A DNA stretch of 64,000 nucleotides from Patescibacteria group bacterium (lineage in GTDB: Bacteria > Patescibacteriota > Microgenomatia > 0-14-0-10-38-17), in contig JBMNNJ010000001.1 in assembly GCA_050953885.1 (NCBI GenBank), positions 463,437 through 527,436 on the forward strand, in the 5' to 3' direction. How positions within the stretch are numbered: position 1 is the stretch's first letter; each line of letters starts with the position of its first letter. The notes beneath the pieces were generated by a model that saw nothing but the letters and a program-made list of their open reading frames with translations, ran no database searches and was not told the origin of the DNA. A program made the position numbers and the translations under genes. Below, in pieces: positions 17,480 to 22,088 of the stretch.

Positions 17480-17640
17480 CAGTTAGAGTTACTGCTGCCG
17501 TTCACCGGGGCTTCAGTTCCTCGCCCCCTGGGCGAGAATAACAATTTCCGCTGATTAAAAACAGATTTCCACAGATAAATCCGTGTTAATCCGCTCAAAA
17601 ATCCGCGTTAATCCGTTATTCTTGTCCAGAGGACAAGGTT
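17480..17640. repeat. 23S expansion segment built from cggattaac words, about 100 nt longer than the corresponding region after E. coli position 1852
   Basis: The words cggattaacgcgg / gagcggattaacacgg repeat after the conserved block GGAAGGTTAA. Confidence 0.5.
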
Positions 17641-17751
17641 CCTTAACCTTCCGGCACTGGGCAGACTTCAGCCCCTATACCTCCTCTTTTAGGAGTTTGC
17701 AGAGACCTGTGTTTTTGGTAAACAGTCGCCAAGCAGTCTTTTGTTGTAGCC

Positions 17752-17885
17752 CGCCTCGCGCTCCGCGCGAGGAAATCCGAATTTCTAAACCCGAAACCCG
17801 AAACAAATCACAATTTTTCAAATCCGCCCGCTGGCGGATTGAATTTGTTTCTAATTTCGTTATTCGTGCTTTCGAATTTCCTTGT
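17752..17885. repeat. Hairpin insertion in 23S made of ccgaaa/tttcg words around the core palindrome ccgcccgctggcgg
   Basis: The left arm ggaaatccgaatttctaaacccgaaacccgaaacaa pairs with the right arm ttgtttctaatttcgttattcgtgctttcgaatttcc. The core is the same as in the intergenic type-3 elements. Confidence 0.6.
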
Positions 17886-19524
17886 GCGAAGTACAAGGCA
17901 GGCAGGGCATCTTGCGAACTTACGCCCAGCTTTTTTGCCTAGTTCCTTAAACCTCTTTCTCTCGCTCGCCTTGGTCTACTCGACCTGCCCACCAGTGTTG
18001 GTTTTGGGTACGGTTTTTGCCTGTTCTTGCCGCGACAATTTTCTCGGAAGCCAAAATCACCCAACGCTTTTTTCCTTTTGGGAAAAAAGGCCATCACGGC
18101 TCGGGTTAAAACAAACTAATGGATTTTCCTATTAGCTCTACCTTGCCGTTTAGACAGGAAATCATTAACCTGCTCGGGTTATCTGGCTTCGTCCTGCCCC
18201 AGCTGATAACGAACAAACAAAAGTACAGGAATATTAACCTGTTGGCCATCGCCTACTCCGCCTAAAACAGCGGACTGAGCTTAGGACCGACTAACCCTCC
18301 GTCGACGAACGTTGCGGAGGAAACCTTAGGCATTCGGCGGCCCGGATTCTCACCGGACTTTCTCGCTACTCATACCGGCATTCTCACTCCCCGACGCTCC
18401 ACCCTCGCCTTACGGAAGGGCTTCACCGCCTCGGGGACGCTCCCCTACCATCCGCCAAAGGCGGATCTGGGACTTCGGTAGATAGCTTATCCTCGATCAT
18501 CTTCGGCGCTAATTTTCATCCGCCAGTGAGCTGTTACGCTTTCTTTAAAGGATGGCTGCCTCTAAGCCAACCTCCTGGGTGTCTTTGAAAATTAACTTCC
18601 TTCAAAAACTTAGCTATCATTTAGAGACCTTATTCGCCAGTCTGGGTTGTTTCCCTCTCGCCCTATCAGCTTAGCCCGATAGGACTGACTCCTTGTTCTT
18701 TTATCTTTGTATTCGGAGTTTGGTTGAAATAAATAGCTTGCGCCACTTATTCCATCCAGTGCTCTACCCCAAAGTAAAAATAAACAAGGGCTATGCCTAT
18801 ACATATTTCGGGGAGAACCAGCTATCACCAAGCTCGATTGGCATATTACCCCTAACCACAAGTCATCCAAACCTTTTGCAGCAGATACTGGTGCGGGCCT
18901 CCCCCCGTCTTTCGACAGGATTCACCCTGCTCATGGTTAGCTCGCTTGGTTTCGGGTCTTCCGCCATTTCTCCTCCAGAAAAAACTGGAAACGCGCTTTT
19001 CACACTCGCTTTCGCTTTGCCTCCCCCCGCTTAGCGGGGTTAGACCAAGAAACAGCGGGAACTCACCGGTTCATTCTTCAATAGGCACGGAATCACCCCG
19101 CCAAGGCGGGGCTTTTCCTGTTTGTTAGCAAATGGTTTCAGGTTCTTTTTCACTCCCCTTCCGGGGAACTTTTCACCTTTCCCTCACGGTACTAGTTCAC
19201 TATCGGTTAGCAAGAGTATTTAGCCTTATCCCGTGGTCGGGACAGATTCGCACAAAGTTTCTTCCCTTGTGTTACTTGGGTACTAGGTTCATTCTTCTCT
19301 GGTTTTGTGTACCAGACTTTCACTGTCTTTGGTTATTTATTCCAAAATATTCCACTACCAAAAAAGAATGAATAATCCTAGCCCCGCAACCCCCACCTTG
19401 TGCGAAGCACAAGGTAAGTTTAGGCTTTTCCGTTTTCGCTCGCCGCTACTTGCGGAATCACTTTCGTTTTCTTATCCTTCGGGTACTTGAATGTTTTCTT
19501 CCCCCGAGTTCCCTCACGCCGCTT

Positions 19525-19640
19525 CGCGGCGAACTCAAAACTCAAAACGCAAAACTCAAAATTTAAATTTTAAAAAATTTTGAGATTTTAGTTACAGTTT
19601 TGACATTTGAGATTTAAAATTTAAGTTCGCAGTGAAACGG
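19525..19640. repeat. Type-2 word hairpin (ctcaaaa / cgcaaaa / tttgag) inserted near the 5' end of 23S
   Basis: The sequence gaactcaaaactcaaaacgcaaaactcaaaattt...aaatttgagattttagttacagttttgacatttgagatttaaaatttaagttc is flanked by 23S sequence. Confidence 0.55.
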
Positions 19641-19849
19641 CGTGCAGCGCAGTTTTCACTGCGCTGGGTTTCCCCATTCGGAAACCACCGGATCAAAGGT
19701 TGGTTGGCACCTCCCCGGCGCTATCGCTGCCGCCAGCGTCCTTCTTCGGCTCTTGCTACCAAGGCATCCACCATTTGCCTTATGGCATTTTAAAAATGCG
19801 TCTTCCTACCCTTATTAAAGATAGGTTCCAAATTTTCAAAGTGCGAAAG

Positions 19850-19922
19850 TGGAGCCAGCCGGGATTGAACCGGCGACCTTCCCGTTGCAAACGGGATGCT
19901 CTTCCCGCTGAGCTATAGCCCC
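19850..19922 (-). tRNA. tRNA-Ala(TGC)
   Basis: The sequence is GGGGCTATAGCTCAGCGGGAAGAGCATCCCGTTTGCAACGGGAAGGTCGCCGGTTCAATCCCGGCTGGCTCCA. It has the G3:U70 pair and the anticodon loop cgTTTGCAAcg. CCA is not encoded. Confidence 0.9.
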
Positions 19923-20195
19923 AAAGCAAATGTAATGTAAAATGTAAAAAGTAGGGGCGTATTGCATACGCCCGCCAACAGGAAACAAACGACCAATGCT
20001 AAATTCAAAAGTTAAAATTTAAAATTCAAAATTGCAAGTCAAAAGTTAAAAGTTCTTTTGCTTTACTTTTGAATTTTGCATTTTGCATTTTGAATTATTT
20101 TTATTCGTTTCCCATTCGTTTTAATTCGTGTCTTTTTAGCCCGTCACTGCGAGCAAATTAGAATTATATCGGTAAAGGGCTTTCTTGTCAAAGTT
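19923..20195. repeat. Composite intergenic-type element (linker, type-1 hairpin, GC palindrome) occupying the tRNA-Ile/tRNA-Ala spacer of the rRNA operon
   Basis: It contains the palindrome gtaggggcgtattgcatacgcccgcc and a type-1 hairpin (caaaagttaaaatttaaaattcaaaattgcaagtcaaaagttaaaag...). It ends with the linker ttcgtttcccattcgttttaattcgtgtc. Confidence 0.6.
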
Positions 20196-20270
20196 TGGTG
20201 GGCGGCGAAGGAATTGAACCTTCTGCTTCCTCTTTATCAGAGAGGCGTTCTGCCGGTGAACTAGCCGCCC
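20196..20270 (-). tRNA. tRNA-Ile(GAT), with CCA encoded
   Basis: The sequence is GGGCGGCTAGTTCACCGGCAGAACGCCTCTCTGATAAAGAGGAAGCAGAAGGTTCAATTCCTTCGCCGCCCACCA. The anticodon loop is ctCTGATAAag. Confidence 0.9.
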
Positions 20271-20285
20271 GAAATTTTAGTGCGA

Positions 20286-20308
20286 GCAGAGAGGCGTTCT
20301 GCCGGTGA
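20286..20308. repeat. 23-nt direct duplicate of an internal tRNA-Ile segment (cagagaggcgttctgccggtgaa)
   Basis: The sequence is identical to 20238..20260, which lies inside tRNA-Ile. The copy sits between tRNA-Ile and the 16S 3' end. Confidence 0.7.
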
Positions 20309-20417
20309 ATCACGGACGCTCTCCCCGTCCTTTTTTTACGCCAAACTTTTAACTCTAGCCTTTGACCAACCAAAAGTGGTAGGAAGAAAAAATTTTTTAT
20401 TTTAAAGATTCTCCTAA

Positions 20418-22088
20418 AAGGAGGTGATCCATCCCCACCTTCCAGTAGGGATACCTTGTTACGACTTAACGCTCATCGCCAAGTTTAGCTTCGTCCCCCC
20501 GCCTAAAACGGCAGGGAGCCTTCAGCTACCCCTGACTTTGCTCATTTGACGGGCAGTGTGTGCAAGAGGCGAGAACGTATTCACCGCGGCCTGCTGATCC
20601 GCGATTACTACCAATTCCGCGTTCATGAGGGCGAATTGCAGCCCTCAATCCCCACTGAGAGGAGGTTTGTTGGGATTAGCTCCGCCTTACGGCTTGGCAG
20701 CCCATTGTTACTCCCCATTGTAGGATGTGTGTCGCCCTGGACATAAGCACCATGCTGATTTGACGTCGTCCCCACCTTCCTCCCCGCCGTTTCTATTAAC
20801 AAATCTTACCGGTTGGTATTTTTTTAGAAAAGCTTAAAAATAGCCAAACAAAAAGATTTGTTTCCAGAAACGGCGGGGCGGTCTCCTGTGAAAATTCAAC
20901 ACAGGATAGGGGTTGCGCTCGTTACCCCACTTAAGGGAACGTCTCACGACACGAGCTGACGACAACCATGCAGTAGCTGTCCAGCCTTTTCTGCCAAAGG
21001 CAGACCCTTGCTCTGTTTCCAAAGCAGGAAAAAGCTGGATGTCAAACCCAGGTAAGGTTCTTCGCTTTGTATCGAATTAAACCACATGCTCCACTGGTTG
21101 TGCGCCTCCCCGCCAATTCCTTTGAGTTTCAATCTTGCGATCGTACTTCCCAGGCGGTCCGCTTAATGGGTTACCTTCGTCACCTAAGATTACTCTCAAG
21201 CAACTAGCGGACATCGTTTACGGCTAGGACTACCCGGGTCTCTAATCCGGTTCGCTCCCCTAGCTTTCGTTCCTCAGCGTCTCCTACTGCCCAGGTGCCC
21301 GCCTTCGCCGTTGGCGTTCCTTACCATATCAACGGATTTCACTCCTACATGGTAAGTTCCAGCACCCCCTGCAGAGGACAAGAAAGGCGGTTTTGTCAGC
21401 TTTTCCCCGGTTGGGCCGGGGGCTTTAACCAACAACCTACCTTTCCGCCTACGAACTCTTCACGCCCAGTAAATCCGGATAACGCTTGCACCCTACGTCT
21501 TACCGCAGCTGCTGGCACGTAGTTAGCCGGTGCTATTTAACAGAAGTTTACAACCCGAAGGCCTTCATCCTTCACGCGGTGTCGCTGCGTCAGGCTTTCG
21601 CCCATAGCGCAAGATTCCCAGTTGCTGCCACCCGTAGGTGTATGGGCCGTGTCTCAGTCCCATTCTGGGGGGCCACGCTCTCACGCCCCCTACCCGTCTT
21701 TGCCTTGGTAGGCCATTACCCTACCAACAAGCTGATAGGCCGCAGGCGCCTCCTTTAGTGAGCAGTTAAGCTCTTTCCCCCACCAAAGGCGGGGATTATG
21801 CGGGATTACTCCGCCTTTCGGCGGGCTATCCCCCGCTAAAGGGTAGCTACCTACGTGTTACTCAGCCGTCCGCCGCTAACCGCTGCTCTGCAGCGGAAAT
21901 CCGAAACTCGAAATCCGAAATCCGAAACAATCCTTAATTTTCAAATCCGCCAGCTGGGGGATTAAATTTGTTTCGGGTTTTGATATTCGTGCTTCGAGTT
22001 TTCCGATGCAAAGCATCGGCCGCTCGACTTGCATGCTTAAGGCACACCGCTAGCGTTCATCCTGAGCCAGGATCAAACTCTCAAAGTA
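20418..22088 (-). rRNA. rrs: 16S rRNA, about 1670 nt including a roughly 115-nt repeat-derived insertion in the V1 region
   Basis: The 3' end is GGATCACCTCCTTT and the 5' end is AGAGTTTGATCCTGGCTCAGGATGAACGCTAGCGGTGTGCCTTAAGCATGCAAGTCGAGCG, both read in reverse complement. The conserved blocks 515, 785, 1100 and 1392 are recognisable. Confidence 0.9.
21893..22010. repeat. Hairpin insertion in 16S V1 made of ccgaaa words around ccgccagctggggg. It is homologous to the 23S insertion at 17752-17885.
   Basis: The left arm is ggaaatccgaaactcgaaatccgaaatccgaaacaa, the core is tcaaatccgccagctgggggatt, and the right arm is ttgtttcgggttttgatattcgtgcttcgagttttcc. Confidence 0.6.

Follow-up and report, generated by a model that had tools for sequence, protein, structure and literature searches.

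The single rRNA operon of a small CPR-like bacterium carries five hairpin inserts of 100-145 bases each at the tips of 16S and 23S helices. The operon lies on the minus strand of the window, by which we mean the whole stretch of 64,000 nucleotides that was analysed. The inserts in 16S h6 and in 23S H63 and H68 form one family of swappable cassettes with conserved end-hairpins, and this family is very probably mobile and specific to rRNA genes. Taken as a whole, the data are best explained by non-coding hairpin cassettes of the intervening-sequence (IVS) type seated on rRNA helix tips, a reading to which we assign a probability of roughly 0.6. Literature searches returned no description of this cassette family.

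Insert positions were determined from Rfam alignments, a MAFFT alignment to E. coli rrsH/rrlH and direct reading. The 16S rRNA gene (20417-22088, minus strand, 1672 nt; Rfam RF00177, 1353 bits; aligned to E. coli rrsH) is devoid of h17 (E. coli 441-494) and has inserts in h6 and h40. The 23S rRNA gene (15130-19794, minus strand; Rfam RF02541) measures about 4665 nt with its two introns and three hairpin inserts; its 3' end at about 15130 is approximate and was taken from the pairing of helix 1 with the 5' end. A first-pass annotation, made from the sequence alone, had proposed inserts in 16S V1 and at three places in the 23S gene, and all four are found at or near these places on the minus strand, in the rRNA sense. 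The h6 (V1) cassette (21880-22020, minus strand, 141 nt; proposed at 21893-22010) consists of mini-hairpin A' gccgatgctttgcatcgg, a family-1 centre of ccgaaa/ttcgg words with the tip CCCCCAGCTGGCGG, and mini-hairpin B' ccgctgcagagcagcgg. The H63 cassette (17754-17898, minus strand, 145 nt; proposed at 17752-17885) is composed of A ccttgtacttcgcacaagg, a family-1 centre of 108 nt with the tip CCGCCAGCGGGCGG, and B cctcgcgcggagcgcgagg. At the tip of H68 (17519-17638, minus strand, 120 nt) a variant A ccttgtcctctggacaag and a variant B ctcgcccagggggcgagg enclose a family-2 centre of cggattaac words; an expansion built from these words had been placed at 17480-17640, of which 17480-17518 is ordinary conserved 23S sequence. 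The H10 hairpin (19515-19644, minus strand, E. coli 150-176), proposed as a word hairpin at 19525-19640 in the 23S 5' region, holds an AT-rich word insert of about 111 nt and has no A/B ends. The h40 hairpin (20783-20880, minus strand), which is about 85 nt longer than E. coli h40 and had been missed, is likewise free of A/B ends.

Each insert folds into one long hairpin, with z scores of -4.6 to -7.6 relative to dinucleotide shuffles (-7.5 for h40) and none of 200 shuffles as stable. Together with the alignment to E. coli, this agrees with the earlier description of self-contained hairpins that extend rRNA helices. The proposed homology of 16S and 23S inserts is borne out by h6 and H63, which are 84-86% identical over about 100 nt (blastn E = 6e-9). 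The inserts contain no ORF and match neither group I introns nor any other Rfam family.

The first-pass annotation did not recognise the layout shared by the h6, H63 and H68 inserts, i.e. mini-hairpin A, a long variable centre and mini-hairpin B. Mini-hairpin A is short and very stable (consensus CCTTGTGC-TTC-GCACAAGG), while B (consensus CCTCGCGC-GRA-GCGCGAGG) approximates the reverse complement of A with two compensated pair changes. The centres are long and self-complementary and consist of tandem arrays of 7-11-nt words. Read in the rRNA sense, A invariably precedes B, and the five different A/B loop combinations all have complementary loops. Two folds are available to the cassette, namely a single long rod in which A pairs with B, and a four-way junction. 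The rod contains two conserved A·C mismatches, and the junction assigns no role to the complementarity of the A/B loops. The h40 and H10 inserts, which lack A/B and show no sense/antisense asymmetry in folding, may be a different kind of insert.

A metagenome scan with the pattern A-N{80,110}-B returned 13 contigs, with 13/13 matches inside rRNA genes. Seven of these contigs come from distant lineages and carry identical A and B around unrelated centres, partly at other helices (h6, around E. coli 225, H25, around E. coli 1115 and H68). Further A...B pairs in the scan contigs are located around E. coli 280, at H25 and H45, around E. coli 2400 and at H98. A and B are identical over 18 and 17 nt at at least 10 helices in lineages with 68-87% rRNA identity. 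This exact conservation exceeds the needs of homology-driven exchange and hints at a sequence-specific factor; within the 64-kb window we found no gene for RNase III, a transposase or a recombinase, and no enzyme is linked to the cassettes. No A/B ends occur outside rRNA genes in the window or in the 13 A...B metagenome contigs, nor is there a full cassette in the approximately 57 kb of non-rRNA DNA of the window. The case for rRNA specificity draws on a single 64-kb window, on short contigs and on one strict-pattern scan. The same centre can occupy four or more helices within one genome, as illustrated by the organism of L047/L050 with an identical 39-nt centre at four helices.

Comparison of close strains demonstrates that the inserts turn over quickly, consistent with the propagating behaviour suggested at first pass. 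Strains with 99.7% identical 16S cores differ in the presence or type of insert at seven helices, namely h6, h33, H10, H25, H45, H63 and H68. Between the window and L004 (1363/1367 identical 16S core positions, 99.7%), h6 holds family 1 versus family 2, 126 nt are present versus absent at H63, and the differences amount to +39 nt at h33, +130 nt at H25 and about +106 nt at H45. The h40 insert is 99% identical in L004, and cassettes common to strains match at 98.4-99.2%, the same conservation as the rRNA core. Family-2 centres occupy h6, H45 and H68 in both L004 and L044, with family 1 at H63 in L044, and the state matrix of 13 assemblies shows that cassette states assort independently. At H68, L006 and L036 have a different stretch of 156 nt with a third kind of centre, L032-L034 combine the family-2 centre of the window with canonical A/B, and L018-L021 have a short native tip; L013 pairs a canonical A with a variant B.

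Empty sites were found for H10 in L052 (caggccgtgaagcggcg) and for H63 in L004 and L006 (ccttgtgctttgcRcgagg) and in the outgroup L018-L021. Such sites can consist of A alone, as at H63 in L018, or of a hybrid of A and B, as at H63 in L004 and L006. The window itself has a lone mini-hairpin A ccttgtgcttcgcacaagg (19396-19414, minus strand) in the 23S gene around E. coli 280. As the distant lineages L046 and L047 carry full A-centre-B cassettes at this helix, the lone A is probably a footprint; the hairpins found here in E. coli, L015, L043 and L049 are unrelated.

Selection acts at the level of the RNA. The minimum free energies of 19 inserts sum to -1182 kcal/mol for the sense and -1012 kcal/mol for the antisense strand. 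The sense RNA folds better because of its many G·U pairs (118 versus 54 in antisense in 16 A-centre-B cassettes), and the hairpin of the transcript is therefore under selection. In an RNAalifold analysis of eight family-2 copies 48 pairs are kept, six of them with compensatory changes.

We propose that gene conversion or template switching, acting on the DNA, both spreads the cassettes and exchanges one for another; the A/B ends of about 19 nt would provide portable homology, joined by the conserved rRNA flanks in exchanges between strains. Recombination between A and B would account for cassette loss, and the centres may be filled and remodelled from the word-repeat vocabulary of the respective genome (here the CCGCC palindrome and AT-rich words). 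Gene conversion does not explain how A/B first reached a new helix. The cassettes would be tolerated owing to their autonomous folding in the pre-rRNA and, by analogy with classical intervening sequences at h6, H25 and H45, would most likely be excised by RNase III, yielding a fragmented yet functional rRNA. Based on this analogy we lean slightly towards the cassettes being cut out rather than kept.

Intervening sequences are known at 23S helices 9, 25 and 45 in Salmonella, Yersinia, Campylobacter, Leptospira, Coxiella and Rhizobiales, and in the 16S h6 region of some Campylobacter, Helicobacter and Rhizobium. The cassettes resemble them as extended stem-loops of about 100-200 nt that replace the tip of a surface helix, in their sporadic occurrence among strains with suspected horizontal spread, in sharing the h6, H25 and H45 sites and in being tolerated with a single rRNA operon. 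They differ in that one family of end-hairpins covers at least 10 16S and 23S sites across lineages, in their hypervariable word-array centres exchanged between helices within a genome, and in the putative nature of RNase III excision here. H63, H98 and the position around E. coli 280 are not classical sites. With respect to the excision analogy, the same applies to H68, h40 and H10. In CPR rRNA genes, short inserts that have no ORF and are not introns have been described as 'uncharacterized' and 'probably' IVS (Tsurumaki et al. 2024, PMC11270868). These share with our inserts the size below 200 bp, the lack of an ORF and of an intron fold, the kind of organism and the vicinity of LAGLIDADG introns at 23S 1931 and 2593, whereas A/B end-hairpins, word-built centres, copies between helices, within-species turnover and overlap with intergenic repeats are absent from that account.

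Alternatively, the mature rRNA could retain the hairpins as bacterial expansion segments on the ribosome surface, tolerated or used, as the first-pass annotation had mainly assumed. We regard this as possible, if probably incorrect. All inserts are located at helix tips and fold independently, leaving the core undisturbed as in eukaryotic and Asgard expansion segments, and H25, H45, H63 and H98 are common to both, presumably as the sites of eukaryotic ES7, ES15, ES27 and ES39. Selection on the sense fold fits retention as well as processing, the core-like conservation of shared cassettes is also in agreement with retention, and the stable, fast-folding A/B hairpins could act as folding insulators. 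However, the near-perfect duplexes of 40-50 bp suit RNase III, for which long near-perfect RNA duplexes are textbook substrates, and classical inserts of the same size at h6, H25 and H45 undergo excision. While expansion segments are retained, vertically inherited and fairly stable within species, the cassettes vary between strains with near-identical 16S, and such free gain, loss and swapping speaks against a fixed structural role. Furthermore, CPR rRNA insertions have been reported as removed from transcripts, according to the passage of PMC11270868 that cites Brown et al. 2015.

The inserts had also been attributed to the same element system as the intergenic repeats, i.e. ordinary genome-wide repeats (MITE/REP-like) that landed in rRNA genes by chance and are tolerated as hairpins. 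The shared core is real. The palindrome CCGCCAGCTGGCGG, two copies of which bound the intergenic modular element (e.g. 50755-50884, plus strand; other copies at 14779-14932, 43228-43380 and 10069-10243), also forms the tip of the h6 and H63 centres; with up to two mismatches it occurs 17 times in the window versus 0.23 expected, 15 times in intergenic DNA and twice at these tips. The H10 hairpin is built from the intergenic AT-word vocabulary, with 37 12-mers (153 occurrences) in common with non-rRNA DNA of the window compared to a shuffle maximum of 10, and in the L050 organism a radA-like gene has an in-frame word hairpin that shares a 15-mer with that organism's own H68 cassette. Like Rickettsia palindromic elements, REP/BIME, MITEs and hairpin-ended IS200/IS605 derivatives, the cassettes are small, non-coding, hairpin-forming and tolerated inside functional RNA or protein genes. 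Nevertheless, they are not simple copies of intergenic elements: once the 14-nt tip is removed, the h6/H63 arms are no more similar to other parts of the window than shuffled sequence is, and no significant k-mer sharing with the non-rRNA DNA of the window is seen for the h40 and H68 inserts. The ccgaaa/ttcgg words and the exact cggattaac words are confined to rRNA genes in the window. The A/B ends are absent from intergenic DNA, yet are kept in distant lineages with other centre vocabularies. In contrast to the mobile repeats, the cassettes are strictly oriented relative to the host RNA, have no known transposase partner, target-site duplications or conserved target word, and replace whole helices. 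The ends are rRNA-specific in the sequence covered and only the centres borrow from the repeat vocabulary of the genome, and a chance landing of intergenic repeats is improbable.

Growth of the helices in place, by short-word slippage and vertical divergence with ends convergent for stable hairpins, is highly improbable and largely refuted already. The tandem word arrays are typical of slippage, and H10 of L004 equals that of the window plus one extra 13-nt word, but this cannot account for abrupt whole-cassette differences between 99-100% identical flanks, for the same centre in different 16S and 23S helices or for independent assortment, and convergence cannot explain the identity of A and B across distant lineages. 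An assembly artefact from repeat collapse or chimeric joins, raised at first pass, is refuted, since, even if contigs assembled from this organism's short reads are prone to end beside the operon, identical cassettes and junctions recur in independent assemblies (JGI, ENA, Logan), with H63 in the window and seven others and H68 in more than 10.

The two 23S introns, which the first-pass annotation had overlooked, are context and lie outside the cassette family. The intron at the E. coli 1931 site (16821-17469, minus strand) has a LAGLIDADG ORF at 17376-16867 (Pfam PF00961, 6e-24), and that at about E. coli 2593 (15422-16168, minus strand) one at 16055-15576 (PF00961, 6e-10). Their boundaries were derived from intron-less alleles, for the 1931 site those of L045, L048, L051 and L052. 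Because of the second intron the Rfam 23S match breaks off too early, at 16092; direct reading and the intron-less alleles revealed exon 3.

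The window carries a single rRNA operon on its minus strand, comprising the 16S rRNA (22088-20417, by Rfam), tRNA-Ile (20270-20196), tRNA-Ala (19922-19849), the 23S rRNA (19794 to near 15130, from Rfam together with the helix that pairs its 3' with its 5' end) and the 5S rRNA (15082-14968). Alignments of the operon with the E. coli genes rrsH and rrlH and with the Rfam models locate five large non-intron inserts in the rRNA genes, all on the minus strand and every one at a helix tip: in 16S at h6 (V1 region, 22020-21880) and h40 (20880-20783), and in 23S at H10 (19644-19515), H63 (17898-17754) and the tip of H68 (17638-17519). 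Each of the five is a single long hairpin with a stability far above that of shuffled controls (z = -4.6 to -7.6). The first-pass annotation had listed four of these as self-complementary hairpins and had asked for their placement on the rRNA structure; all four are recovered with slightly shifted coordinates, and the h40 insert, absent from that list, is added. The homology it had claimed between the 16S V1 and 23S inserts is confirmed by 84-86% identity between h6 and H63 over ~100 nt. The alternative it had allowed, an assembly artefact from repeat collapse, is ruled out, since identical cassettes and junctions recur unchanged in many independent assemblies. No ORF of at least 80 aa is present on the rRNA-sense strand inside the five inserts. 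An Rfam search of the inserts returned no intron or other family, only spurious sub-threshold matches to miRNA precursors; on the gathering and E-value thresholds a ribozyme, intron or known-RNA identity of the hairpins was rejected.

The inserts in h6, H63 and H68 share a three-part design in which a long middle hairpin, the centre, stands between two short perfect hairpins, A on the 5' side (ccttgtacttcgcacaagg in H63) and B on the 3' side (cctcgcgcggagcgcgagg in H63). The sequence of B is nearly the reverse complement of A, except that two U-A pairs are changed to C-G pairs, and the variants of A and B found in H68 and h6 carry compensated changes. Outside the rRNA genes neither A nor B occurs anywhere else in the window. 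A lone A hairpin lies in 23S near E. coli position 280 (window 19414-19396), a place where two metagenome contigs of distant lineages, L046 and L047, have full cassettes and where unrelated hairpins stand in E. coli and in other CPR contigs; it reads as a probable footprint. As judged by reading, neither A nor B matches a tRNA-like or bulge-helix-bulge processing signal, or an integron attC-like site.

Relatives were gathered via contigs with close homologues of the intron-encoded endonuclease. One of these, L004, is syntenic with the window, with 1363 of 1367 16S core positions identical and most 23S segments at 98.4-100%, and despite these near-identical cores the two operons differ by entire cassettes. 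At h6 the window has a family-1 centre, built from ccgaaa words with a CCGCC tip, and L004 a family-2 centre, built from cggattaac words, between canonical A and B. At H25 and H45, where the window has short native hairpins, L004 is longer by 130 nt (a 146-nt AT-word hairpin replacing a 16-nt native stretch) and by ~106 nt (a 121-nt family-2 cassette replacing a 15-nt native stretch), respectively. At H63 it is the window that has 126 nt more of cassette, and L004 shows ccttgtgctttgcgcgagg, in which the 5' arm of A is fused to the 3' arm of B. L004 also has 39 extra nucleotides at 16S h33 (V6; L004 6192-6230, window 21014), where the window is short; this piece has neither A/B ends nor word structure and is a further variable site of another kind.

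A table of cassette states at nine sites in 13 assemblies extends this comparison. L044 combines family 2 at h6 and H45 with family 1 at H63, H10 is empty in L052, and L013 has a variant B together with a canonical A. H68 holds a third centre type within a 156-nt stretch in L006 and L036, and a family-2 centre between canonical A and B in L032-L034. The more distant L018-L021 (~88% identity) have native short tips at both H63 and H68. Across strains the cassette states assort independently, so cassettes have been gained and lost repeatedly, or have recombined.

The same ends are found in distant lineages. A metagenome collection was scanned for A followed by 80-110 free bases and B, the one gap range covered, and this yielded 13 contigs, in all of which the pair lies inside an rRNA gene, with A upstream of B when read along the rRNA. 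The window's species accounts for six of them (H63, family 1). The remaining seven have rRNA only 68-87% identical to that of the window, and combine identical A and B with centres of unrelated words at other helices, namely 16S h6 (L042) and, in 23S, ~E. coli 225 (L046), H25 (L049), ~1115 (L043) and H68 (L041, L047 and L050). A looser search found further A...B pairs in these contigs. The organism represented by L047 and L050 carries an identical 39-nt centre at ~280, H25, H45 and ~2400, a long cassette version at H68 and, in the H98 region, a miniature one; four cassettes (124-214 nt) are present in L046 and three in L043. In L037, a more distant CPR relative with an intron endonuclease 72% identical, the H25 anchors are 157 nt apart (44 in the window) and the extra sequence contains no A/B ends; H25 inserts of other kinds thus occur in the group.

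The fold of the transcript is under selection. Over 19 inserts the sense strand is more stable than its complement (summed -1182 vs -1012 kcal/mol), and 16 A-centre-B cassettes contain 118 G·U pairs in the sense fold vs 54 in the antisense fold. For the h6 cassette of L042 the values are -84.5 vs -47.4 kcal/mol, with 12 and 0 G·U pairs. No such asymmetry is seen in the inserts without A/B (h40, H10 and H25 of L004). Eight family-2 copies have 48 pairs in common, of which 6 show compensatory double changes, and many changes swap G·U with G-C or A-U. Moreover, A and B have three-base loops that complement each other in five different combinations (TTC/GRA, GTA/TGC, GGA/TCT, TCT/AGG and TTT/AGA), in which G·U pairings occur and A·C never. 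Two folds come into question: a rod formed by pairing of A with B, which is the predicted minimum and carries two conserved A·C mismatches, and a four-way junction, where A and B each form a perfect hairpin; because of the palindromic symmetry, every covarying column fits the two alike.

The first-pass annotation had further attributed the inserts to the system that produced the intergenic repeats. Shared sequence bears this out in part, for the family-1 tip and the AT words of H10, and not for the family-1 arms, H68, h40 or the A/B ends. The tips of h6 and H63 bear the palindrome CCGCCAGCTGGCGG, which at up to two mismatches occurs 17 times in the window (0.23 expected), the remaining 15 copies all being intergenic. 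Several copies delimit modular intergenic elements 110-150 nt long, with CCGCCAGCTGGCGG at one or both sides (50755-50884, 14779-14932, 43228-43380, 10069-10243, 5724-5860 and 7144-7290). Small hairpins inside these elements include gtcattctgaa...ttcagaatgac and cctgacgaaagtcagg. The elements resemble MITE/BIME, and the window contains no transposase gene. The H10 hairpin is composed of the AT-rich words that fill intergenic DNA, sharing 37 12-mers with it vs a shuffle maximum of 10. Significant sharing with non-rRNA DNA is confined to these AT words and to the 14-24-nt family-1 tip of h6 and H63. Without the tip, the family-1 arms reach a best local alignment score of 34 against intergenic DNA, equal to the best shuffled score, and a suggestive-looking match at 7325-7294 was dropped for this reason. 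H68 and h40 show no significant sharing with non-rRNA DNA; outside rRNA, ccgaaa words are not found above chance, and cggattaac words have just weak, 2-mismatch relatives (cgaattaac) in intergenic DNA. The tRNA-Ile/tRNA-Ala spacer (20195-19923) holds the same AT-rich word hairpins plus further repeat modules, and is 62% identical between the window and L004 vs 99-100% in the adjoining rRNA.

We also compared centres with the non-rRNA flanks of their own contigs. The centres of L042 and L043 have no match there, and that of L050 is positive, its H68 centre having the 15-mer agtttctcagtttct in common with the word hairpin of a radA-like gene. This hairpin (L050 4480-4580), built from words of the gaaac/gtttc type, lengthens the protein in frame by 14 residues (ETEEQESSLVSQFL) behind the Walker A motif when compared with RadA of the window, and recalls the Rickettsia palindromic elements within protein genes. 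Neither full-length homology between rRNA and intergenic copies nor a target-site duplication or conserved target at the junctions, as MITE/REP-type elements would have, was found. The flanks of ~20 cassettes have no word in common, entire helices being replaced, and a 4-nt GCCG repeat stands at the junctions of the H10 insert only. The picture is one of rRNA-specific ends and of centres taken from each genome's own repeat vocabulary.

Together the data show a cassette family with conserved ends, strict orientation, copies in different helices, rapid turnover and footprints, which in the data at hand is confined to rRNA. Classical intervening sequences (IVS) are cut out of pre-rRNA by RNase III without re-ligation, leaving the mature rRNA fragmented. 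Expansion segments are retained in the assembled ribosome and are stable and vertically inherited. The inserts in h6, h40, H10, H63 and H68 are like classical IVS in that an extended stem-loop without ORF or intron fold replaces the helix apex, and they share with them a sporadic strain-to-strain presence and absence. By analogy with the IVS at h6, H25 and H45, RNase III probably removes the cassettes from pre-rRNA, a reading to which we assign a probability of roughly 0.55; the 64-kb window contains no RNase III gene. That the cassettes are kept in the mature rRNA, as expansion segments are, seems to us the less probable outcome, given that gain, loss and swapping at 7 sites within one species take the place of stable vertical inheritance.

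In CPR bacteria, short rRNA 'insertion sequences' have been defined as at least 100 bp extra relative to E. coli K-12 with no intron and no ORF (Tsurumaki et al. 2024, PMC11270868), and short ORF-less inserts of this kind were called uncharacterised and probably IVS (PMC11270868). The present inserts fall under this definition, except that in h40, which with ~85 nt extra lies just below the 100-bp cut-off of Tsurumaki et al. 2024. Bacterial rRNA IVS and these short CPR inserts are the closest known objects. PMC11270868 makes no mention of end-hairpins, word-built centres, copies shared between 16S and 23S, within-species swapping or intergenic overlap, and our literature searches found none of these features described.

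As to how the cassettes spread, gene conversion or template switching most likely copies them from helix to helix and from strain to strain, for which A, B and the conserved rRNA flanks would supply the homology. Recombination of A with B would remove them, and their self-contained folding would make them tolerable. Such copying would not account for how A and B first came to occupy a new helix. The identity of A and B at every base, even between distant lineages, suggests that a sequence-specific factor may act on them; the window holds no candidate enzyme for the cassettes. More speculatively, and in our estimate unlikely, A-centre-B could be a distinct, actively moving element class for rRNA helix tips, with ends read by a putative sequence-specific factor (a DNA recombinase, an ssDNA-hairpin transposase or an RNA-processing enzyme) and horizontal spread across the CPR; the centre would be filled by the genome's word-hairpin generator, which would also place hairpins between genes and, keeping the reading frame, within protein genes (radA in the L050 organism). 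Movement of the cassettes by an IS200/IS605-like mechanism, with hairpin ends and ssDNA, is unsupported, as no conserved 4-5-nt target precedes A and the transposase is lacking from the window. A LigT-type 2'-5' RNA ligase/2H phosphoesterase (57092-57652, minus) and a PD-(D/E)XK_3 nuclease-family protein (2925-3338, plus) are encoded in the window, and the ends of RNA or DNA are conceivable substrates for either; we saw no tie between these proteins and the cassettes.

No gene set in biology is more conserved than the rRNA genes, and microbial taxonomy takes them as its yardstick. In this species, strains are set apart by entire 100-150-nt cassettes at no fewer than seven helices of a single rRNA operon, which hampers 16S/23S-based identification, primer design and assembly in CPR bacteria. 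The short rRNA inserts left uncharacterised in PMC11270868 gain a defined and directly searchable architecture. Conserved ends, strict orientation and an apparently rRNA-only distribution imply some mechanism of targeting, copying or processing. The cassettes are a natural experiment on the origin of expansion segments or IVS, and make the question of how rRNA acquires new helices testable.

The 23S gene also contains two introns on the minus strand, at the E. coli 1931 site (17469-16821) and the ~2593 site (16168-15422), with single-domain LAGLIDADG ORFs of 169 and 159 aa (Pfam PF00961). Neither reaches the Rfam group I intron gathering score. Their boundaries were set by intron-less alleles from other assemblies: the first is absent in L045, whose contig stops short of the second site, only the second is absent in L044, and both are absent in L048, L051 and L052. 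Spliced RNA as the source of the intron-less contigs is ruled out, since L051 runs on into protein-coding DNA, and these contigs are therefore DNA alleles. The five hairpin inserts have neither the catalytic fold nor the endonuclease ORF of the group I intron/homing-endonuclease class, and the two LAGLIDADG introns are elements separate from them. The Rfam match to 23S ends at 16092, because the 3' end of the LSU model is forced onto this position, while the gene runs past the second intron to ~15130; automatic annotation would cut 23S short and give an apparent 1-kb gap between 23S and 5S.

In the alignment to E. coli the 16S rRNA is without helix h17 (E. coli 441-494, 54 nt; window 21539). 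Where the usual 515-533 primer region should be, it reads CAGCAGCTGCGGTAAGAC, and standard 16S primers would probably miss this organism. The window encodes an ATP-dependent DNA ligase, glycolysis and pentose-phosphate genes and PFOR; this gene content, the missing h17, the introns and the single operon fit a CPR/Patescibacteria genome. A 912-aa protein encoded at 26-2764 (plus) has an endosialidase-chaperone (Peptidase_S74) domain, as phage tail-fibre-like proteins typically do. Imperfect gattaacacggat-like repeats in its DNA gave rise to weak pattern matches. Nearly all genes lie on the minus strand, and over positions 1-64000 GC skew is negative (-0.02 to -0.27) in every 2-kb bin but one; a comparably strong strand asymmetry has been described in a complete Microgenomates genome (PMC7143001).
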